From IMG/VR virus record IMGVR_UViG_2778261544_000009: a stretch of DNA of 35,624 bases. The stretch is one strand, 5' to 3'. The notes below the pieces were generated by a model. The model was not told where the DNA came from. It ran no database searches and saw only the letters and a list, made by a program, of their open reading frames with translations. Both the position numbers and the translations under genes were made by a program. Positions 6,759 through 16,496 of this stretch are shown here, piece by piece (the stretch's first letter is position 1; the number at the start of each line of letters is the position of its first letter). The stretch comes from a virus (taxonomy: Duplodnaviria; Heunggongvirae; Uroviricota; Caudoviricetes).

Positions 6759-7287
6759 ATTAATTCATGTTGCCCGCCGGGAGTTGCACCTCGACGATGA
6801 CACTTACCGCGCCTTTCTGGTGCAGTGCACGGGCAAAACCAGTTGCCGCGAGCTGTCCGTTGCACAACTGGAACAAGTGCTCGATGCCATGAAAGAGCGC
6901 GGTTTTAAAAAGCAGAAAAAACATCCCCGCCGTCGCTTTAAGGGGCATGTCACACCGCGCGAGAAGATTTATAAAATCTGGCAGCAGATGTTTCTTGATG
7001 GTTTCGTCTCCGATATCAGCGACGCCGCGCTGGACAAATACGTTGAGCGCCTGACAGCCAGACGTAATGGCGGACAGGGTGTTTCCACGCTGGCCTGGTG
7101 TCACGGGGAATCGTTGCAGGTTGTGCTCGAAACGCTCAAACAGTGGCATATGCGCTGCATCCGGGAAGCCTTTGCCCGACATGGTGTGCCTTTACCTGTG
7201 AGCGAAACCGGGCGGGAGCTGCGCGGCTATGATGCACTGACCAGTGCATATGCCCGCGCACGAAACAGCGGGAGAATTGCTGTATGA
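6736..7287 (+). CDS. gemA: GemA-like protein (Mu gp16 family)
   Basis: Sequence MSRTSLIKLIHVARRELHLDDDTYRA... is Mu gp16-family-like and the gene sits directly before mor. Start taken at the internal ATG at 6736. Confidence 0.65.
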   Translation: MSRTSLIKLIHVARRELHLDDDTYRAFLVQCTGKTSCRELSVAQLEQVLDAMKERGFKKQKKHPRRRFKGHVTPREKIYKIWQQMFLDGFVSDISDAALDKYVERLTARRNGGQGVSTLAWCHGESLQVVLETLKQWHMRCIREAFARHGVPLPVSETGRELRGYDALTSAYARARNSGRIAV

Positions 7288-7733
7288 AACAGATGAAAGA
7301 GCAGGATTTATTCGAAGACCTTCGGGACGACAGCGTTCTGGAATATCTTCATGATTACCAGGAAAACACCGCTTATCCGGCGTTAATTTCTGAACTGAAC
7401 GCACTGCTGCGTAAAGAGCTGGCCCGGATTGGCGCAGACCCTGCCCATTCCCTTGAGCTGGTTGTGGCGATTTGTCGCCATATCGGCGGGATGCAGGTTT
7501 ATGTTCCGAGGGGGAATATTCTGGAGAATCTTGTCCGGGATATGCGTATCTGGCGTGATTTTAACGGCCATAATATTCCTGAACTGGTTCAGCGTTACGG
7601 AGTGACGTATAAAACCGTCTACAAGGCCATCAAACGGATGCGACGTCTGGAGCGTAACAAATACCAGCCGGATTTGTTTTACCACTCCCCGAACCTGCCT
7701 CACCCCGTTCGTCGTCCGCCACTACGCCCTTAA
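7284..7733 (+). CDS. mor: Mor-family middle/late transcription activator
   Basis: Mor/C-family C-terminal HTH block ...RIWRDFNGHNIPELVQRYGVTYKTVYKAIKRMRRLERNKYQ...; last gene of the early operon. Confidence 0.85.
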   Translation: MKQMKEQDLFEDLRDDSVLEYLHDYQENTAYPALISELNALLRKELARIGADPAHSLELVVAICRHIGGMQVYVPRGNILENLVRDMRIWRDFNGHNIPELVQRYGVTYKTVYKAIKRMRRLERNKYQPDLFYHSPNLPHPVRRPPLRP

Positions 7734-7739
7734 TCAATG

Positions 7740-7763
7740 AAGCCGGTAAATCCGGCTTTTTTT
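7740..7763 (+). terminator. Intrinsic terminator at the end of the early operon
   Basis: Stem AGCCGG / loop TAAAT / CCGGCT followed by seven T, beginning 7 nt after the mor stop codon. Confidence 0.75.
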
Positions 7764-7818
7764 ATGCCTCCGGCACCATGAAGCAGACCACGTTTAAATC
7801 TGCTTCACAGGTGCTTTT

Positions 7819-8415
7819 ATGGAAAATCAAAAATTCTCCCCGGCCTTTGAACATGCGCTGAATTTTATTCTGCGTCCCGATATCGAAGGCGTTTATGTCA
7901 ATGACCCCACTGACCGTGGCGGCGAAACCAAATACGGCATTTCTGACCGCCGCGACGGTGTGATTGACGGCAAAACCGATGTCAACGGCGACGGCAAACC
8001 GGATACCCGCATTAAGGATTTAACCCGCGAACAGGTTGCGCAGATTTACTGGCGCGATTACTGGCTACCTGCCGGATGTGACCAGTGGCCTGATGGCGTG
8101 GCGATGTTTGTGTTCGATGCGGCGGTTCAGCATGGCGTTAAAAAAGCCATCAGAATTTTGCAGGAAGCCGCTGATGTGGATGCTGACGGCATCATCGGCC
8201 CACGTACCCGTAAGGCTGTGAGTCTGTCCACCCCGGACTGGCTGCTGGCCCGCTGCATTGTCCGTCGTTCCCGCTTTTATGCCGACATCATCAAATCAAA
8301 ACCCGCCCAGGGCAAATACCTGAACGGCTGGTTTAACCGCATGGAAAAACTGACCGACGCCTGTCTGGAAATCATCGATACCCCTCTGGGCATCATGTCC
8401 GCCACGCGGGGGTGA
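7819..8415 (+). CDS. Endolysin, GH108-like N-terminal domain with C-terminal peptidoglycan-binding domain
   Basis: N-terminal FILRPDIEGVYVNDPTDRGGETKYGIS resembles the GH108 signature and the C-terminus ...DADGIIGPRTRKAV... is PG-binding-like. No N-terminal hydrophobic SAR segment. Confidence 0.75.
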   Translation: MENQKFSPAFEHALNFILRPDIEGVYVNDPTDRGGETKYGISDRRDGVIDGKTDVNGDGKPDTRIKDLTREQVAQIYWRDYWLPAGCDQWPDGVAMFVFDAAVQHGVKKAIRILQEAADVDADGIIGPRTRKAVSLSTPDWLLARCIVRRSRFYADIIKSKPAQGKYLNGWFNRMEKLTDACLEIIDTPLGIMSATRG

Positions 8416-8416
8416 T

Positions 8417-8644
8417 ATGGGCAAAGGCTGGGATGCCTCACTGAAAGCCGGGCGGCGTGACCGCCTGCGTCAGGAGGTTTTACACCGCATGGCCGGAGGT
8501 CCGCCCCCGAAACCGCTGGACTATACCGGCCATGACGGCACACACGCCAGCTACTACATGCGTGGCTGGAACTCCGTGGATACACGGGACATTTTCTGGC
8601 AGTGCCAGAAGTACAAGGAAAAACTCAATGCACAGAATGAATAG
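8417..8644 (+). CDS. Hypothetical basic hydrophilic protein, lysis-cassette member
   Basis: 75-aa ORF whose ATG lies 2 nt after the endolysin stop codon, suggesting translational coupling. Confidence 0.45.
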   Translation: MGKGWDASLKAGRRDRLRQEVLHRMAGGPPPKPLDYTGHDGTHASYYMRGWNSVDTRDIFWQCQKYKEKLNAQNE

Positions 8645-9038
8645 TCTTTTTGTTCGCGTTATTTACTCCCGCTTTATGTTGTGCCAGTGGTCGTTTCTGG
8701 GGCTGTCGGCAGTACTTTTTCTGGCGAGCTGTTTTGCCGGATGGCGGGCGTTTGCGGTCATGGTGCTGGCATACGGGGCGACACTCTGCCTGATTCACAG
8801 TTTCCAGCTGGGCAACGTACCTTATCGCCTGCAACCCAAAAGGCGTTTCCGGGCCGCCTCCCTTCGAATTGTCGTGTGGTCATGGGTGGTCTGGGCCGTT
8901 GGTTTTTTCATGCTGACATTCGGCATTCTTTATCTGAAGGAGCCTTATCAGCTGGCGTTCTGGCTGGGCGGTATTTTTTGCGCGGCACTTTATAAACATC
9001 AGCGCCGTTTTCATAAGGGGGATTCATGGATCCGTTAA
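8628..9038 (+). CDS. Four-TM membrane protein (holin/antiholin candidate)
   Basis: AAGGA RBS then ATG at 8628; four hydrophobic segments in about 136 aa. Confidence 0.5.
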   Translation: MHRMNSLFVRVIYSRFMLCQWSFLGLSAVLFLASCFAGWRAFAVMVLAYGATLCLIHSFQLGNVPYRLQPKRRFRAASLRIVVWSWVVWAVGFFMLTFGILYLKEPYQLAFWLGGIFCAALYKHQRRFHKGDSWIR

Positions 9039-9634
9039 CCCTTTCAGGCATCGCCTCTGTTCTGCTGAAAGCCGGGCCGGGGCTGATTCGTTCCGTCGGG
9101 CGCTGGTTTGGTGGCAGCACATCTGCCGCCGCTGACTCGGTGGCCGGTATGGTGGAAAGCGTCCGGGAAAGCCTTCCCGTTGCTGAACAGCAACGCATTC
9201 TGGAACAAAAACTGGGGATGCTGTCACCGGAGCAACTGGTGCAACTGGAAACCCTGAAAATTCAGCTGCAACAGCTGGAGGTGGAACGGCAGAAGCTGGT
9301 GCTGGCTGACCAGCAGGCCGCACACCACGAACAGCAGGAAACCATCCGCAATGGTGACAACGCCACGGACAGCTATGTGCGACAGACACGCCCGCTGCTG
9401 GCCCGCCTTTCCTGTTACAGCAGTCTGGCCTATGTGCTGTTGCTCTCCTGCGGCCAGATTGCCGGAGCCATTGCGGGTGCCAGAGGTATCACGCTGCATA
9501 TGCCATCACCGGACTGGGATATCACGCTGATGTTGCTTACCCCGGCGCTGGGCTATCTCGGCGTAAGAACCCTTGACGGCTTTGCCCGTTACAGCAAATC
9601 AAGCCGTCACAAAATGTCTGTGGGGCCGAAATGA
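9026..9634 (+). CDS. Holin-like membrane protein with central coiled coil
   Basis: AAGGGGG RBS; Q/L-rich heptad region followed by C-terminal hydrophobic segments. It resembles the prophage '3TM holin' architecture; family assignment is unverified. Confidence 0.5.
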   Translation: MDPLTLSGIASVLLKAGPGLIRSVGRWFGGSTSAAADSVAGMVESVRESLPVAEQQRILEQKLGMLSPEQLVQLETLKIQLQQLEVERQKLVLADQQAAHHEQQETIRNGDNATDSYVRQTRPLLARLSCYSSLAYVLLLSCGQIAGAIAGARGITLHMPSPDWDITLMLLTPALGYLGVRTLDGFARYSKSSRHKMSVGPK

Positions 9635-9858
9635 CCGACGAAATCGACCGCATCAGTGAAGTGGTTCTGAACGAACGTCAGAGCGTCGTTAACGCCTGGC
9701 AGACGCGGACAAAAGAAGTGCCCCGCAGTCGGGGCTTCTGCAATGACTGCGGGAACGTTATTCCGGCACAGCGCCTTGCGGCGCTGCCGGATGTGGTGAC
9801 CTGTATTGACTGTCAGCAGATGCGGGAACGCAGGAGGAAAACGTGTCCTGGGAAATGA
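9631..9858 (+). CDS. TraR/DksA-family C4 zinc-finger protein
   Basis: 75 aa with CNDCGNVIPAQR...CIDCQ, a four-Cys zinc-finger pattern typical of TraR/DksA-like phage proteins. Confidence 0.7.
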   Translation: MTDEIDRISEVVLNERQSVVNAWQTRTKEVPRSRGFCNDCGNVIPAQRLAALPDVVTCIDCQQMRERRRKTCPGK

Positions 9859-10148
9859 TCAGAGCCAACTGGCCCATTCTGTGGGCATTGCTGATGACAG
9901 GAATAAACCTGCTTCAGCTGATTCTGGCGAAAACCTACGTCAAACGTGAAGAGTTTGATTCACTCCGTTCCCGCGTGTCGGTGATGGAAAGCCAGGTACA
10001 CCATTTACCCGACCGTGATGAGTTCCACCGCCTGCAACTGGATATCAGCAACCTGCGGGGAGAAATCAAAGAACTGGGGCCATCCATCCGCCAGGTATCC
10101 CGCATCAGCGATTTGTTATTAGAGAACGAGTTAAAGGAAAAAAAATAA
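9843..10148 (+). CDS. Small membrane-anchored coiled-coil protein (releasin/spanin-like candidate)
   Basis: N-terminal TM segment WPILWALLMTGINLLQLIL followed by a predicted coiled coil. Confidence 0.5.
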   Translation: MSWEMIRANWPILWALLMTGINLLQLILAKTYVKREEFDSLRSRVSVMESQVHHLPDRDEFHRLQLDISNLRGEIKELGPSIRQVSRISDLLLENELKEKK

Positions 10149-10441
10149 TGGCGATGAAAGAGATCCTCACTGAAGACCGTCGTCTTGTGTTGCTGCGTTC
10201 CCTGCTGGACTGTGGCGACAGCGCGAATGAATCCGTGTTGCAGACCTGCCTTCAGGCCTACGGTCATAAGGTATCCCGTGATGTGGTGCGCACCCAGCTT
10301 GCATGGCTGCGCGAGCAGGGGCTGGTTCGTCTGTCTGATGTGGGCGGCTGTTACGTGGCTGAAATCACCGGCAGCGGTGAGGATGTGGCAAACGGCCTGT
10401 CCAGCGTTCCGGGCGTTAAAAAACCCCGTGCGAGGGACTGA
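10148..10441 (+). CDS. Hypothetical protein (97 aa)
   Basis: ORF in the operon with its start overlapping the upstream stop codon. Confidence 0.5.
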   Translation: MAMKEILTEDRRLVLLRSLLDCGDSANESVLQTCLQAYGHKVSRDVVRTQLAWLREQGLVRLSDVGGCYVAEITGSGEDVANGLSSVPGVKKPRARD

Positions 10442-10443
10442 GC

Positions 10444-10743
10444 ATGGCCCGAAAACTGAAGCCGTTAAGTCGCGGAGAACGGGCCGTCGTGCGGCAACTG
10501 GCGTACTGTCTTGTGCTGGCAGATATCGAGCAAAACGCCATTGTCCGTGCATACGAACAACAGACCGGAAAGCCCTGGAACCCGGATGCACCGGATACCC
10601 CCATGAAACGTGCCCTGCGTTCATCACCGGCATGTGCGCGGCTGTGGAAGCTGCTGGGTAAGGATATCCGCTCCGTTCGCGAAGAAATATACGCCGGTCT
10701 GAAAACACCGGGAACTGAAGACGGGGGCCGTCGTGAACCGTAA
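10444..10743 (+). CDS. Hypothetical protein (99 aa)
   Basis: ORF in the operon. Confidence 0.45.
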   Translation: MARKLKPLSRGERAVVRQLAYCLVLADIEQNAIVRAYEQQTGKPWNPDAPDTPMKRALRSSPACARLWKLLGKDIRSVREEIYAGLKTPGTEDGGRREP

Positions 10744-10880
10744 AAAGAATCCGATAAGTAAAGCGTCCCGTGATGAACTTCGCCGTCTGGCGCACAACCT
10801 GACATGGCGTGAAATCCAGAGTGGCGCGCTGAAATCTGCATACGAAAGTTTACAGCGTAGTGAGCAACAGGAGGGCACTC

Positions 10881-11462
10881 ATGGAAAATGAACAACGCCC
10901 CACCCGTGGCCGTCTTTCCAAAGTGGATTTACTCCCGGACAGCATCCGGGAGCAGTTGCATCAGATGCTGCGGGAAAAGCGGCACACGCAGGAAGAAATC
11001 CGCGAAGCCATCAATGCCCTGATTGATGAACACAACCTGCCGGAAGAGATGCAGTTAAGCCGGACGGGCTTAAACCGCTACGCCATCCGCATGGAAAAAG
11101 TCGGGGCAAAAATCCGCGCCTCCCGCGAAATGGCCGAAGTCTGGGCGGCAAAGCTGGGGTCCGCGCCGACGTCAGACGTCGGCAAGCTGCTGATGGAGTT
11201 TGTAAAAACGCTGGCCTTTGAAACGTCCATGTCGATGGCAGAAGACGACAAACCTGTTGCACCGAAGGCGCTGGGCCAACTGGCGCTGGTTGCCCAGCGT
11301 CTGGAAGCGGCAGCCATGACCAGCCATAAACGCGAGAAAGCGATCCGCGATGCGTTTGCGCAGGAGATGGCAGAGAAAACCGAAGAACTGGTCAGAACGG
11401 GCGGTCTGTCAGGTGGTGCGGCTGACACCATCAAACGTGAAATTCTGGGGATTAGCGCATGA
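10881..11462 (+). CDS. Terminase small-subunit-like protein (Mu gp27 position)
   Basis: AGGAGGG RBS then ATG at 10881 (the track ORF begins at a GTG at 10860); sits immediately upstream of the large terminase. Confidence 0.6.
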   Translation: MENEQRPTRGRLSKVDLLPDSIREQLHQMLREKRHTQEEIREAINALIDEHNLPEEMQLSRTGLNRYAIRMEKVGAKIRASREMAEVWAAKLGSAPTSDVGKLLMEFVKTLAFETSMSMAEDDKPVAPKALGQLALVAQRLEAAAMTSHKREKAIRDAFAQEMAEKTEELVRTGGLSGGAADTIKREILGISA

Positions 11463-12994
11463 CACAGATGAATACATTCAGTGAATACGATGTATTACTG
11501 CCGTATCAGAAACGCTGGGTGGCGGATGATGCCGACCTGAAAATCGCCGAGAAATCCCGCCGTACCGGTTTAACCTGGGCTGAAGCGGCAGATGCGGCAC
11601 TGACGGCATCACTGAAGAAGGAAGACGGCGGGCGCGATCACTTTTATATCGGTTCGAATAAGGAGATGGCCCGCGAATTTATCGACGCCGTGGCAATGTG
11701 GGCGAAAGCGTTTAATGCGGCAGCGGAAGAAATCTGCGAGGAAGTGATCACCGACGAAGACAAGGATATTCTGACGTTCGTCGTGTACTTCGCCAGCGGT
11801 TTTAAGGTCAAGGCACTGTCCAGCAACCCGAGCAACATTCGCGGGATGCAGGGGAATGTCACCATCGACGAGGCCGCGTTCCATGAAAAACTGGACGAGC
11901 TGCTGAAGGCGGTGCTGCCGCTGAAAACATGGGGCGGCAAAATTCGCCTTATTTCCACCCATGACGGCGTGGACAACCTGTTTAACCAGCTGATTCAGGA
12001 AAGCCGTGCGGGCAAAAAAGATTACAGCATTCACACCATCACGCTGGATGACGCCTGCAATGACGGGCTGTACCGGCGTATCTGTCAGGTGCGCGGCATG
12101 GTGTGGTCACCGGAAGCCGAGGCGGAATGGAAAGAAGGCCTGCTGCGAAATACCGCTACCCGCGAAGACGCACTGGAGGAATATTACTGCGTCCCGAAAA
12201 ACGGCGGCGGCACGTATATCCCCCGCTCACTGCGTGAACGTGCGGCCCGTGGCACCGGGAAAGTGTTGCGCTTTACCGGCACACCGGAATTTAACGCACT
12301 GACGGAAAGCCAGCGCCGGGCAGATATCCGGGAATGGCTGGAAACGGTGGTGCGCCCTGAACTGGAAAAACTCCCGAAGAACCTGCGCCACTGTCTGGGG
12401 GAAGACTTTGCGCGTTCGGGTGACCTGACCGTACTGGCCCCTGTGACGGTGAACGATGACACCACCCGCGAGGTGCCGTTCCTGGTTGAGCTTGCCAATG
12501 TGCCGTTTAAACAGCAGGAGCAGGTGCTTTTCTGGCTTTGCGATCGTCTGCCCCGTCGCGACGGCATCAAAATGGATGCGCGGGGGAATGGTCAGTATCT
12601 GGCAGAACAGGCTGCAGAGCGGTACGGCGATGAAGTGGAACAGGTGATGCTGTCCGTGGCGTTTTACCGCGAAAACATGCCCCGTTTCCGTGCGGCGTTT
12701 GAAGATGATGAGTTGATCCTTCCGAAGCATGAAGACGTGATCAATGACCTCGGGGCCATTCAGTTACTGCGTGGCGTTCCCGGCATTGATGATTCACGAA
12801 CCAAAGGCAGCGACGGTCACAAACGTCACGGCGACGCCGCTGTAGCCATTTTCCTGGGCTTCCTTGCCAGCAAGGATGACTGCCACCGTTACGAACTGCA
12901 CCGTCTGAACCGCCCGGCGAAACCAGAAGAACGCAACGCGCGCCGCCAGATGAAGCTGACACGCGGCCTGAAAAATGAGGGAGGTTTACTGTGA
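11459..12994 (+). CDS. Terminase large subunit
   Basis: 511 aa, preceding the portal gene, with acidic ATPase/nuclease-like motifs; Mu gp28-like by position and size. Confidence 0.8.
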   Translation: MTQMNTFSEYDVLLPYQKRWVADDADLKIAEKSRRTGLTWAEAADAALTASLKKEDGGRDHFYIGSNKEMAREFIDAVAMWAKAFNAAAEEICEEVITDEDKDILTFVVYFASGFKVKALSSNPSNIRGMQGNVTIDEAAFHEKLDELLKAVLPLKTWGGKIRLISTHDGVDNLFNQLIQESRAGKKDYSIHTITLDDACNDGLYRRICQVRGMVWSPEAEAEWKEGLLRNTATREDALEEYYCVPKNGGGTYIPRSLRERAARGTGKVLRFTGTPEFNALTESQRRADIREWLETVVRPELEKLPKNLRHCLGEDFARSGDLTVLAPVTVNDDTTREVPFLVELANVPFKQQEQVLFWLCDRLPRRDGIKMDARGNGQYLAEQAAERYGDEVEQVMLSVAFYRENMPRFRAAFEDDELILPKHEDVINDLGAIQLLRGVPGIDDSRTKGSDGHKRHGDAAVAIFLGFLASKDDCHRYELHRLNRPAKPEERNARRQMKLTRGLKNEGGLL

Positions 12995-14562: not shown

Positions 14563-15319
14563 AACCCTCATCCCGAAAGAGGCGCTGGCGTGGCTGAAGG
14601 CGAAGAAGCTGCGCCCCGGTTTTGATTACCGGGATGTGTGGCGGGAAGAACACCGGAACAGCTTCACCGTGGCGAAAATGCTGCAACTGGATTTGTTGTC
14701 GGATGTGAAAGCCCTTGTGGAAGACGCCCTGCAAAGCGGGCAGACGTTCAGTGAGTTCCGGGAGGCGCTGCAACCACTGCTGATAAAACGCGGATGGTGG
14801 GGCATACAGGAGATGGATGATCCGCTGACGGGTGAAACCCGCACCGTGCAACTGGGCAGCGACCGCCGCCTCCGCACGATTTTTGACACCAACATGCGCA
14901 CTGCCCGCGCGGCGGGCCAGTGGGAACGCATTCAACGGACAAAGCGGGCCATGCCGTATCTGATTTACGAGCTGGGGCCATCCCGCGAGCACCGGGCGGA
15001 GCATGTGAAATGGGCGCGTCTGTGTCTGCCGGTAGATCACCCGTTCTGGCAGACACATTTTGCCCCTAACGGCTGGGGCTGCAAATGCACCATTCGTCAG
15101 GTCAGCCGTGGTGAGTATGCGCAACTGGCGGCACAGGGCACCATTCACACCGAAGCGCCGGAAATCAGAACTGTCCGCTGGGTGAACAAACGCACGGGCG
15201 AAGAGGAAGATGTGCCGGAAGGGATTGATCCGGGCTGGAACTACAATCCCGGCATAAACCGTGAGCAGGCGCTGGCGCGCCAGCTGGCGACAAAACAGGC
15301 CCGTTTTGACAGTGAGTAA
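14555..15319 (+). CDS. Head morphogenesis protein (Mu F-like)
   Basis: Follows the portal gene; start taken at the ATG at 14555 that overlaps the portal stop. Confidence 0.7.
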   Translation: MRETLIPKEALAWLKAKKLRPGFDYRDVWREEHRNSFTVAKMLQLDLLSDVKALVEDALQSGQTFSEFREALQPLLIKRGWWGIQEMDDPLTGETRTVQLGSDRRLRTIFDTNMRTARAAGQWERIQRTKRAMPYLIYELGPSREHRAEHVKWARLCLPVDHPFWQTHFAPNGWGCKCTIRQVSRGEYAQLAAQGTIHTEAPEIRTVRWVNKRTGEEEDVPEGIDPGWNYNPGINREQALARQLATKQARFDSE

Positions 15320-15533
15320 CCCTCCCGCCGCAAATCCCCCTGAAACGCATCAGAAACGCGTTTTTTTATTCTGATGGCGTGAATGTGCATTCTGACTTTT
15401 TTGAAGGCGCTGTGGCGTTTTTGAAGGGGTTTTGAAGGGGTATTCTTCCCGTTTTCAGTGAAGCCGGTAAATCCGGCTTTTTTTCTGCCTTCCGCATACT
15501 GACCGTCGGTAACCCCAAACGACGGAGACTGAC
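15320..15533. promoter_or_regulatory. Structured F-I intergenic region: hairpins, 3x TTTTGAAGG direct repeats, terminator-like element
   Basis: Direct repeat GAAACGC twice (15342-15360); inverted repeat CATCAGAA/TTCTGATG (15348-15377); TTTTGAAGG at 15399, 15419 and 15430; hairpin plus T-run at 15460-15484; inverted repeat CCGTCG/CGACGG at 15503-15525. Confidence 0.6.
15460..15484 (+). terminator. Terminator-like hairpin, identical to the one at 7740-7763
   Basis: Same AGCCGG-TAAAT-CCGGCT stem-loop followed by a T-run. Confidence 0.65.
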
Positions 15534-16496
15534 ATGCAACCGGAACTGCTGGCGCTGTGTTTTTCCCTGCCAGAACCCATCACTGAGCTGACACCCGCTC
15601 AACTGCCGGAATGGCTTGAACTCGTTCCTGCGGGTGAGTTCACCGGGCGTGATGGCCGGACGTGGATTAACCGCAATCCGCATGAGGTGGTTGCCCGCTC
15701 GTCCGACATCAAAATTCCGGTGGACATTGAACATGCCACCGAAATTAAAGGCCCGCGTGGTGAAGATGCTCCGGCGTATGGCTGGGTGGAAGAACTGCGG
15801 GTGACGGATGGCGGCACCATTGAAGGCCGTGTTGTCTGGAACGCGTCCGCCCGGTGGGTGCTGAGTGAGCGCCGCTACCGCTATTACAGCCCGGCGTTTT
15901 TCCATGACGCGGAGGGTGTGGTGACGCGCCTGTCCAGCGTCGGGCTGACCAACAAACCTAACCTGGATTTTCCTGCACTGAATACGGAGAAAAACCCGAT
16001 GACAGTACCTGTGCAAATCACCGGCCTGCTTGGGCTGGCTGAATCTGCCACGGTGGACGATACCGTGGCCGCCATTAAACAACTTCAGGAGAACGAACAG
16101 GTGGCGCTGAACCGCGCACAGACACCTGACCTGACGAAGTTTGTGCCGGTTGAAACCCACAATCTGGCACTGAATCGTGCCGAAACCGCAGAACAACGCC
16201 TTCAGCAACTGGAAGAGAAGGAAGCCGAGGCGCTTGTGGATGCGGCCATCGAGGCCGGAAAAGTGGCCCCGGCAAACCGTGACATGTTCCTTGCCACCTG
16301 CCGCACGGAAGAAGGCCGCAAACAGTTTGCGGAGTACACCAGAGGTGCACAGCCGCTGGTGAACAACGACAAGCCCAGCCAGGGCAAGGATAAACCCGCG
16401 CAGACACTGACCGACGCCGAACTGGCGATGTGCCGCAGCATGGGTATTACCGGGGAAGAGTTCCTCGCCGCTAAACCTAAACAGGAGAATAACTGA
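15534..16496 (+). CDS. Head protease/scaffold (Mu I-like)
   Basis: 320 aa immediately upstream of the major head gene; GGAG RBS. Confidence 0.75.
   Translation: MQPELLALCFSLPEPITELTPAQLPEWLELVPAGEFTGRDGRTWINRNPHEVVARSSDIKIPVDIEHATEIKGPRGEDAPAYGWVEELRVTDGGTIEGRVVWNASARWVLSERRYRYYSPAFFHDAEGVVTRLSSVGLTNKPNLDFPALNTEKNPMTVPVQITGLLGLAESATVDDTVAAIKQLQENEQVALNRAQTPDLTKFVPVETHNLALNRAETAEQRLQQLEEKEAEALVDAAIEAGKVAPANRDMFLATCRTEEGRKQFAEYTRGAQPLVNNDKPSQGKDKPAQTLTDAELAMCRSMGITGEEFLAAKPKQENN

Follow-up and report, generated by a model that had tools for sequence, protein, structure and literature searches.

A cytoplasmic GH108 endolysin and a candidate PF11351-type holin in the lysis cassette of a Mu-like prophage of Escherichia coli

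The cassette and its prophage

The stretch of DNA analyzed here, referred to as the window, is the 35,624-nucleotide (nt) IMG/VR virus record IMGVR_UViG_2778261544_000009 (Caudoviricetes), and corresponds to a complete Mu-like prophage of Escherichia coli. This work concerns its putative lysis cassette, a tightly overlapping plus-strand operon at positions 7819-10148 that begins with an endolysin gene (lys), ends with a gene of the DUF2730 family, and includes a gene for a 202-amino-acid (aa) holin candidate, orf202. The features of the locus are presented in Table 1. RefSeq labels the cassette products as a 'GH108 family protein', three 'hypothetical proteins', a 'TraR/DksA C4-type zinc finger protein' and a 'DUF2730 family protein'. 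From the endolysin gene through orf97, neighbouring genes overlap by 1-17 nt or are spaced by 1 nt, and therefore form a single translationally coupled operon. When the real plus-strand genes of the whole prophage were screened for strong hydrophobic segments, three membrane proteins only were obtained, all of them in the cassette. The PADLOC defence-system hidden Markov models (HMMs) yielded zero matches against the cassette proteins.

Region 7284-11462 is 97.8% identical to the STEC383 chromosome. A search of 5,426 complete E. coli genomes located it in 58; in 42 of these, at least 80% of it is covered, and the module is conserved and intact. Across the ten best-matching E. coli genomes, conservation of the region is 95-98%. 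The STEC383 element extends from its repressor/ner/transposase A/B end to com-mom and interrupts potE, and the full structural gene set is present, from repressor to mom. Such conservation and completeness weigh against the explanation that the cassette sits in a decaying, non-inducible prophage whose lysis is no longer functional, which we regard as most improbable. The window is a prophage rather than a plaque-forming isolate, and one early gene is frameshifted in the STEC383 copy, yet every open reading frame (ORF) of the cassette is intact and overlapping, and the same module is found in deposited Klebsiella, Vibrio and Shewanella phages, of which the Vibrio ones were sequenced from plaques.

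Table 1. Features of the lysis cassette and of the region directly upstream of it.
Feature	Position	Strand	Size	Properties and evidence
Mor-family transcription activator	7284-7733	+		Directly upstream of the cassette; Pfam Mor, 103 bits
GC-rich hairpin and T-run TGAAGCCGGTAAATCCGGCTTTTTTT between mor and lys	7738-7763	+		Terminator-like site at 7739-7759
Soluble (cytoplasmic) endolysin, GH108 muramidase and PG_binding_3	7819-8415	+	198 aa	Pfam, PHROG, solved structures, hydropathy
Mu gp18 homologue	8417-8644	+	75 aa	Soluble, basic (pI 9.5), predicted three-helix
Hypervariable four-transmembrane inner-membrane protein (orf136), Mu gp19 slot	8628-9038	+	136 aa	Hydropathy, charge
Putative holin (orf202), divergent PF11351 GTA_holin_3TM	9026-9634	+	202 aa	Profile, AlphaFold2, BFVD, gene context
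TraR/DksA-type C4 zinc-finger protein, Mu gp24 slot	9631-9858	+	75 aa	Pfam, TIGR02419
DUF2730 protein, Mu releasin gp25 family	9843-10148	+	101 aa	PF10805, Mu gp25 BLAST

The endolysin

A first-pass annotation of the locus, made from the sequence alone, had described an endolysin with a GH108-like N-terminal domain, a C-terminal peptidoglycan-binding domain, and no signal-anchor-release (SAR) segment, and this description holds. Both domains score above their Pfam thresholds, with 84.1 bits for Glyco_hydro_108 (PF05838; E = 1e-23, cut-off 21.2) and 63.0 bits for PG_binding_3 (PF09374; E = 3e-17, cut-off 24.6). The protein also matches phrog_315, 'endolysin', with E = 1.7e-54, and the solved GH108 structures 2IKB and 2IS5 with E = 6e-20, its E23-G-V-Y aligning with their HEGGY motif. 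The stretch I-E23-G-V-Y-V-N-D-P-T-D-R-G-G-E-T-K-Y-G-I aligns to HEGGYANHPKDPGGETNWGI of 2IKB, and the motif E-G-G-Y ... D-x-G-G-x-T-x-x-G-I is present. By analogy with the family, E23 is the putative catalytic glutamate.

A SAR domain would show at the N-terminus as some 15-20 weakly hydrophobic residues free of charges, and the endolysin has no such stretch. Its first 60 residues contain no hydrophobic segment: over a 17-residue window the Kyte-Doolittle average peaks at 0.38, and uncharged runs do not exceed 7 residues, far under the values of the controls, namely 1.46 and 17 residues for the SAR domain of Mu gp22, and 2.54 and 26 residues for the signal-bearing soluble lytic transglycosylase (SLT) of phage B23. 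Given that the ORF begins at the first start codon after a stop, no in-frame upstream or N-terminal extension is possible. The signal-anchor check suggested with the first-pass annotation thus predicted no anchor, and the profile search suggested with it returned the two domains above. With its export signal missing, as observed, the muramidase would be expected to build up folded in the cytoplasm.

Relative to 2IKB and to the enzymes of the Vibrio and Shewanella relatives, the GH108 domain contains a D/G-rich insertion, RRDGVIDGKTDVNGDGKPDTRI, at residues ~43-64 (7945-8010), which Klebsiella phage Kp4866-3 also has. The insertion looks like a Ca2+-binding DxDxDG loop and weakly matches Dockerin_1 (E = 0.088).

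The holin candidate

A HMMER scan of 1.84 billion representative sequences returned 136 relatives of orf202. Searched individually, 28 of 62 diverse full-length relatives match PF11351 (E <= 0.01), the best with E = 8.4e-9, and no other family recurs. The protein is laid out as a weakly hydrophobic N-terminal helix, a helical cytoplasmic region of about 85 aa, and a C-terminal transmembrane (TM) hairpin. Its AlphaFold2 (AF2) model is all-helical, with a predicted local distance difference test (pLDDT) of 92.6 and a predicted template modelling score (pTM) of 0.70. The helices span residues 3-28, 30-47, 52-63, 68-111, 116-152 and 164-186, the last two of which hold the clear TM hairpin. The best matches of the model in a Foldseek search against BFVD are annotated 'Holin of 3TMs, for gene-transfer release' (E = 1.9e-7, probability 1.0). 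Across the family, R122-P123 is invariant ahead of the second hydrophobic helix, and R181 is invariant after the last. Basic residues at both cytoplasmic ends of the hairpin point to a cytoplasmic location of residues ~30-115 and of the C-terminus; should helix 3-28 cross the membrane, the model would have three TM domains (TMDs) in an N-out/C-in topology, resembling a class I holin.

Annotated relatives and characterized members of the family point in the same direction. The homologue in Janthinobacterium phage Donnerlittchen matches a PHROG labelled 'holin' (phrog_3427). In the other relatives the homologues are labelled hypothetical, 'coil containing' or 'transmembrane segment', and only the distant and shorter occupant of the same slot in Pseudoalteromonas phage HS6, which has W-R-P and G-R-T motifs in common with orf202, is annotated 'holin'. 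Two PF11351 holins share family-level sequence and fold similarity with orf202, as well as adjacency to an endolysin. TeaA of Vibrio phage ICP1, assigned to PF11351 by remote homology, collapses the proton motive force, is triggerable by dinitrophenol (DNP), and is encoded alongside the TMD-containing antiholin ArrA (bioRxiv 10.1101/790493). Lysis and release of RcGTA require the endolysin rcc00555 and the holin rcc00556 (PMC5026251).

Gene context was evaluated by scanning IMG/VR with a degenerate back-translation of the conserved motif Q-x-T-I-R-x-G-D-...-Y-V-R-x-T-R-P, which yielded at least 120 loci, reduced to 55 non-redundant genes among the matches listed; all counts out of 55 below refer to these listed matches. 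In at least 34 of the 55 viral loci, a recognised muralytic domain is encoded no more than three genes upstream (GH108 in 18, DUF5675 in 7, Phage_lysozyme in 6, Peptidase_M15_4 in 2, Peptidase_M15_3 in 1), and Mor is found there in 11. Being associated in this way with muralytic enzymes from five or more Pfam families is a classical holin signature. The gene directly before the orf202 homologue encodes a GH108 enzyme in Vibrio 1.028.O, Vibrio LP.1 and Shewanella MuM16-2, a DUF5675 protein in Vibrio ZX4290, an LD-endopeptidase in Donnerlittchen, and an amidase in Vibrio 1.232.O. In the window, orf202 is likewise encoded near the endolysin gene, two genes downstream of lys.

Several observations weigh against orf202 as the holin. 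Taken alone, it reaches 19.0 bits against PF11351, under the gathering cut-off of 24.8. Helix 3-28 is weakly hydrophobic, with conserved Arg, Pro and Gly residues, which leaves the 3-TM topology insecure. The similarity of the orf202 subfamily to the TeaA-like ORF137 of ICP1 is moderate (hhalign probability 66%, E = 6e-5), and ORF137 itself gave no match to PF11351 by hmmscan. In Donnerlittchen, a LydA-type holin of its own is encoded upstream of the endolysin, and the orf202-like gene occupies the place where spanins usually are; in some phages, therefore, the primary holin may come from outside the family. Finally, hole formation by orf202 is a prediction, and the proposed scheme names no mechanism for the outer-membrane step or for the DUF2730 protein.

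On balance, the sequence-based evidence leads us to propose, with fair confidence, that orf202 is the holin freeing the muramidase. The protein would insert in the inner membrane in the predicted class-I-like N-out/C-in arrangement, with its large helical loop in the cytoplasm, accumulate, and then trigger lesions through which the muramidase would reach the murein, a course of events modelled on the family, on TeaA and rcc00556, and on the endolysin linkage. The cassette as a whole would be the late lysis module of an intact E. coli Mu-like prophage, organized as a canonical holin-endolysin system and not along the releasin/SAR route of Mu, a reading to which we assign a probability of about 0.65.

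The first-pass annotation had called the 202-aa protein holin-like and had suggested a holin-dependent lysis pathway. The former is borne out by the PF11351 relatives, the fold match and the endolysin linkage, which make orf202 the best holin candidate, and the latter is supported by this candidate together with the soluble endolysin. The searches of holin and spanin families that it proposed gave PF11351 for relatives of orf202, which itself stays under the cut-off, assigned the last ORF to DUF2730, and found no spanin.

The four-transmembrane protein

A four-TM protein had also been noted downstream of the endolysin, and the ORF, orf136, does encode four hydrophobic segments. Its best start is at 8628, which is the choice of PGAP in near-identical E. 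coli prophages and has AAGGA upstream. The N-terminus, middle loop and C-terminus are basic, and an N-in/C-in topology is therefore predicted. The gene is hypervariable: identity is 86% to an E. coli relative for which the adjacent genes reach 96-100%, and 31% to Klebsiella phage Kp4866-3, where neighbours are 50-83% identical, except orf99 at 38%. Relatives form merely 13 clusters in a collection of 5.8 billion protein sequences. In one E. coli copy (P0266), the end of the gp18-like gene carries it as an in-frame fusion.

The position of orf136 corresponds to that of Mu gp19, a 120-aa protein annotated with four TMDs in an N-in/C-in topology and following gp18. The two agree in position after gp18, in size and in predicted topology, which amounts to a positional and topological analogy. 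Homology could not be demonstrated, with a BLASTP E-value of 0.18 and an hhalign probability of 12% that covers only a common F-x-G-W-R-A motif at the end of TM1, and the two proteins belong to different PHROGs (12596 for orf136, 4975 for gp19). A weak match to phrog_2121 hinted that orf136 might be a paralogue of the orf202 TM hairpin, which hhalign did not bear out (probability 2%), and a relationship to ArrA was dismissed since no similarity to ICP1 ORF138 was found.

Given its location, one may ask whether orf136 is the real holin, with orf202 as its regulator, antiholin or other accessory factor. As a small inner-membrane protein with several TM segments, encoded between lys and orf202 and translationally coupled to both, it would qualify; holins are diverse and fast-evolving, and the analogous Mu gp19/gp20 were once proposed as holin and antiholin by Samanta et al., as cited in PMC9239132. 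This explanation seems very unlikely nonetheless: the cassette as found in the Vibrio, Shewanella and Pseudoalteromonas phages retains orf202 but not this gene, its distribution is very narrow, and Mu gp19, at the equivalent position, does not kill, is not triggered by DNP and can be dispensed with for lysis (PMC9239132). Moreover, scans of orf136 against Pfam, PHROG and other HMM collections matched no holin family.

With orf202 retained as the holin candidate, orf136 may be an antiholin-like modulator of it, a suggestion made with low confidence. The analogy is with the multi-TM antiholin ArrA beside TeaA; it rests on ICP1 ORF138, presumably ArrA, adjoining the TeaA-like gene, and on Mu gp19 being dispensable and non-lethal. 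As such, orf136 would most likely be a non-essential modulator of timing.

The DUF2730 protein and the releasin question

The last cassette gene, the fifth after lys, has a strong AGGAGG Shine-Dalgarno sequence ahead of a GTG start. The first-pass annotation had recognised a TM plus coiled-coil protein here, which the ORF confirms, and had contrasted the phage with Mu as lacking a releasin, which does not hold, since this very protein belongs to the releasin family: it scores 105.9 bits against PF10805 (cut-off 24.9) over residues 4-98 of 101, and is 26% identical to Mu gp25 (E = 3e-11). Its N-terminal TMD, at about residues 11-29, is followed by K30, K34 and R35 and by a coiled coil; the predicted topology of the protein is N-out/C-in, with the coiled coil in the cytoplasm. 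Synteny is that of Mu gp24-gp25-gp26-gp27, the gene being followed by a gp26-like gene, gp27 (TerS) and TerL.

Releasins are defined functionally as promoting the release of a cognate SAR endolysin with a basic cytoplasmic N-terminus. As the endolysin here has no SAR domain, this function as defined cannot apply to the protein, which is a family member by sequence. It would thus be a releasin homologue with nothing to release, and would probably act at the membrane or holin step, or outside lysis. DUF2730 proteins are known from other Mu-like phages with non-SAR endolysins, where their role was stated to be unknown (Chamblee et al. 2022, PMC9239132), and a whole-word search for 'releasin' found no later literature on this combination.

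A releasin-centred pathway as in Mu, in which the DUF2730 protein would be the key trigger, acting on the endolysin or a membrane-bound intermediate, and orf202 would be secondary, is in our view decidedly improbable. Such a pathway draws on the strong family membership, on the conserved gp24-gp27 synteny, and on the presence of a DUF2730 gene at most three genes downstream of the orf202-like gene in 34 of the 55 loci. However, there is no SAR or TM segment in the endolysin that could be freed, and orf202-like genes occur with an endolysin and without DUF2730 in non-Mu phages, at 21 of the 55 loci. In addition, Mu gp25 alone is neither lethal nor hole-forming (PMC9239132), and therefore could not let a folded cytoplasmic enzyme out.

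Spanins and the outer membrane

Spanins were sought as a lipoprotein with signal and lipobox that is embedded in, overlaps or adjoins a type II inner-membrane coiled-coil protein, or as a lipoprotein with a C-terminal TMD. A lipobox and signal scan of all frames over the whole window returned no credible spanin or lipoprotein candidate, and the same scan recovered the o-spanins of Mu (gp23.1) and of B23 as positive controls. The first-pass annotation had found the spanin roles not obvious, and indeed the prophage as a whole offers no spanin candidate. The only plus-strand matches in the cassette are in-frame segments of orf136 and orf202; the lipobox-like Cys35 of the former and the internal 'LLLSC' of the latter were discarded as lipoprotein signals because their cysteines are not conserved. 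Out-of-frame ORFs within orf202 (9351-9530) were likewise rejected as Rz1-like, having no signal or lipobox and being missing from the ORF list of the Klebsiella orthologue. No disruptin-like cationic peptide of the phiKT gp28 type is evident.

The same script found no lipobox ORF in the matching loci of the Klebsiella, Vibrio 1.028.O, Shewanella and Pseudoalteromonas phages, and a believable lipoprotein lies near few, if any, of the 55 loci. Phage B23, on the other hand, encodes an exported endolysin, an i-spanin/o-spanin pair, a TraR-like protein and a DUF2730 protein, and has no PF11351-like gene. The PF11351-like gene and the spanin pair thus share one slot in different Mu-like phages. In the Mu-like lineage of Vibrio phage ZX4290, a gene for a 190-aa lipoprotein, MKRLLSFGLIAMLAGC..., separates the gp16-like gene from mor (707-1279; 548-1120 in a second locus). 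Both its large size and its location speak against an o-spanin, and the lipoprotein may serve in superinfection exclusion or at the cell surface.

The shared slot raises the question of whether orf202 replaces the spanins, performing or enabling disruption of the outer membrane while orf136 or the DUF2730 protein permeabilises the inner one. Occupancy is complementary, with spanins and no PF11351-like gene in Mu and B23, and the reverse in the window and in the Klebsiella, Vibrio, Shewanella and HS6 phages; the scarcity of lipoproteins near the 55 loci fits as well, and in Donnerlittchen the gene follows the holin and endolysin genes, which is exactly the usual Rz/Rz1 site. Yet the positive-inside rule, with basic residues flanking both hairpin ends, places nearly all of orf202 in the cytoplasm and leaves a periplasmic loop of about 11 residues, so that the protein cannot span the periplasm. 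Since, furthermore, the family members TeaA and rcc00556 behave as holins, and the cassette of Vibrio phage 1.232.O consists of an amidase and an orf202-like gene only, we consider this substitution quite improbable.

With no spanin encoded, disruption of the outer membrane would be either spanin-independent or carried out by an unrecognised factor. Genomes without spanins are known, accounting for 91 of the 677 in Kongari et al. 2018 (PMC6139136), and the prophage resembles these phages in having no detectable two-component or unimolecular spanin. A broader view, which we find unlikely, is that PF11351-type cassettes constitute a distinct, generally spanin-less pathway in which DUF2730 proteins have a wider job, such as control over when 3TM holins trigger or assistance in breaching the envelope; Mu would then be derived, having swapped the holin for spanins and a SAR endolysin and kept DUF2730. 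The alternation of PF11351-like and Rz/Rz1-like genes in one slot and the frequent holin-TraR-DUF2730 linkage are compatible with this view.

The gp18-like and TraR/DksA proteins

The 75-aa basic protein reported downstream of the endolysin is confirmed as an ORF. It is 70% identical to Mu gp18 over its full length (BLASTP, E = 3e-37), both proteins match phrog_2121, and its relatives bear the precomputed annotation PF26867. The downstream ORFs had been presented as unassigned partners beyond Mu, which was mistaken in view of this identity and of the four-TM protein in the gp19 slot. In Mu, gp18 and gp19 belong to the middle operon, and a clone with genes 18-21 deleted remains lysis-competent (PMC9239132). 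A gp18-like gene also follows the endolysin gene in Klebsiella, Vibrio, Shewanella and Pseudoalteromonas Mu-like phages.

The AF2 model of the protein has three helices (pLDDT 84.6), and a fold search against the PDB returned nothing significant. Nearly all top Foldseek matches were RNA polymerase omega-subunit chains, at non-significant values (E of 0.3-2, TM-score of about 0.3), which is noteworthy as the operon also holds a gene of the TraR/DksA family, whose members bind RNA polymerase, but is no more than a lead. The single 284-position phrog_2121 profile matches the gp18-like protein at positions 3-75 and the 202-aa protein at positions 91-272, implying that a fusion exists somewhere; none was found in 19 gp18-like clusters or in the 55 viral loci.

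The TraR/DksA gene, located between the last two genes listed by the first-pass annotation, had been overlooked there. Its product matches Pfam zf-dskA_traR with E = 4.9e-11 and TIGR02419 with 60.6 bits (cut-off 59.7), and Mu encodes at the same position gp24, a 64-aa CxxC...CxxC protein. In every related phage examined, the gene is retained between the holin and DUF2730 genes. Both the gp18-like and the TraR/DksA gene are conserved in the Mu family, and their products are probably no effectors of lysis.

Promoter region and regulation

The Mor protein encoded directly upstream is 62% identical to Mu Mor and 32% identical to Mu C, and a tblastn search of the window with Mu C found the mor gene alone, which is the sole Mor/C-family gene. 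In the hairpin between mor and lys, the core AAGCCGGT-AATCCGGCTTTTTTTA, with one variable base between the arms, is invariant in comparison with the mor-gp18 region of Mu, annotated as Pm, and with Klebsiella phage Kp4866-3. The same dyad is contained in a primer used for cloning Mu Pm (PMC9239132). The hairpin is likely a Mor-dependent promoter element for the cassette.

The exact 26-nt sequence TGAAGCCGGTAAATCCGGCTTTTTTT is repeated at 15459-15484, again as a hairpin and T-run, about 50 nt upstream of a 320-aa ORF (15534-16496) and downstream of a 273-aa ORF ending at 15319. The STEC383 counterparts of the 273-aa and 320-aa ORFs are labelled 'phage minor head protein' and 'phage protease', respectively. 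The two repeats are probably combined terminator and Mor-dependent promoter units. In Klebsiella phage Kp4866-3, the stretch from mor to lys accommodates an additional gene (878-1210), whose 110-aa product is hydrophobic and apparently multi-TM; in the E. coli prophage, this stretch consists of the hairpin-containing intergenic region only.

These sequence features suggest that a Mor-type activator, acting at a Pm-like promoter, switches on the lysis genes, and that the separate C step of Mu is dispensed with. A Mor-dependent promoter just 3' of mor would then transcribe the coupled operon as one unit. Given that the lysis/late operon starts right after mor, a two-tier cascade is suggested rather than the three-tier one of Mu (Mor, then C), though com and mom are present.

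Comparison with related lysis systems

The closest systems are those of Mu-like phages with cytoplasmic endolysins, namely Vibrio 1.028.O, Martha 12B12 and ZX4290, Shewanella MuM16-2, Pseudoalteromonas HS6 and Klebsiella Kp4866-3, all of which have, as does the prophage, the order mor - endolysin - gp18-like - PF11351-like - TraR/DksA - DUF2730 - winged helix-turn-helix (gp26-like) - TerS - TerL. Protein identities of the prophage are 31-83% against the Klebsiella phage and 30-71% against the marine phages. Unlike its marine relatives, the enterobacterial lineage adds the hypervariable four-TM gene between the gp18-like gene and the holin gene.

In comparison with Mu, the prophage has homologues of Mor, gp18 (70%), gp25 (DUF2730, 26%), gp26 (59%) and gp27 (47%), the same dyad of the Pm region after mor, a zinc-finger protein in the gp24 slot and a four-TM protein in the gp19 slot. 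The lysis system of Mu consists of the SAR endolysin gp22, the spanins gp23/23.1 and the releasin gp25 (Chamblee et al., mBio 2022, PMC9239132). The prophage has instead a soluble GH108 endolysin where gp22 is a SAR T4-type lysozyme, a PF11351-type holin, of which Mu has none, and no spanins of the gp23/gp23.1 type; it also has no separate C gene, and its gp18- and gp19-like genes follow lys instead of forming a separate middle operon. Since most cassette genes are shared with Mu, the genuine differences in the cassette are the endolysin type, the 202-aa gene and the missing spanins.

Phage ICP1 (10725-12097, minus strand) presents the same three membrane-protein architectures, with a multi-TM ORF138 (ArrA-like) and a TM plus coiled-coil ORF139 (114 aa) just upstream of the TeaA-like ORF137. 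The order there is 139-138-137, whereas the TM plus coiled-coil gene of the prophage is downstream of the holin gene. The proteins differ as well: beyond the moderate hhalign similarity of orf202 given above, orf136 is unlike ORF138, and ORF139 has no match to DUF2730/PF10805.

Significance

The first-pass annotation had described a cassette that differs from the canonical one of Mu. The arrangement is in fact common among Mu-like phages other than Mu, and Vibrio phages pairing DUF2730 with GH108 and PG_binding_3 enzymes had already been tabulated (Chamblee et al. 2022, PMC9239132 Table S1). What is new here is modest, namely the PF11351-type holin candidate, the correspondences with Mu gp18, gp19 and gp24, and the slot complementarity with spanins; otherwise the cassette is ordinary, its parts belonging to described families and its architecture recurring widely.

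Nevertheless, the prophage offers an E. coli-hosted and genetically tractable example of the lysis module used by most Mu-like phages. For phages that combine DUF2730 with a cytoplasmic endolysin, a case for which Chamblee et al. 2022 offered no explanation, a specific holin candidate is now named. Two questions become testable in E. coli: what the job of a releasin homologue is without a SAR endolysin, and how spanin-less phages pass the outer membrane.

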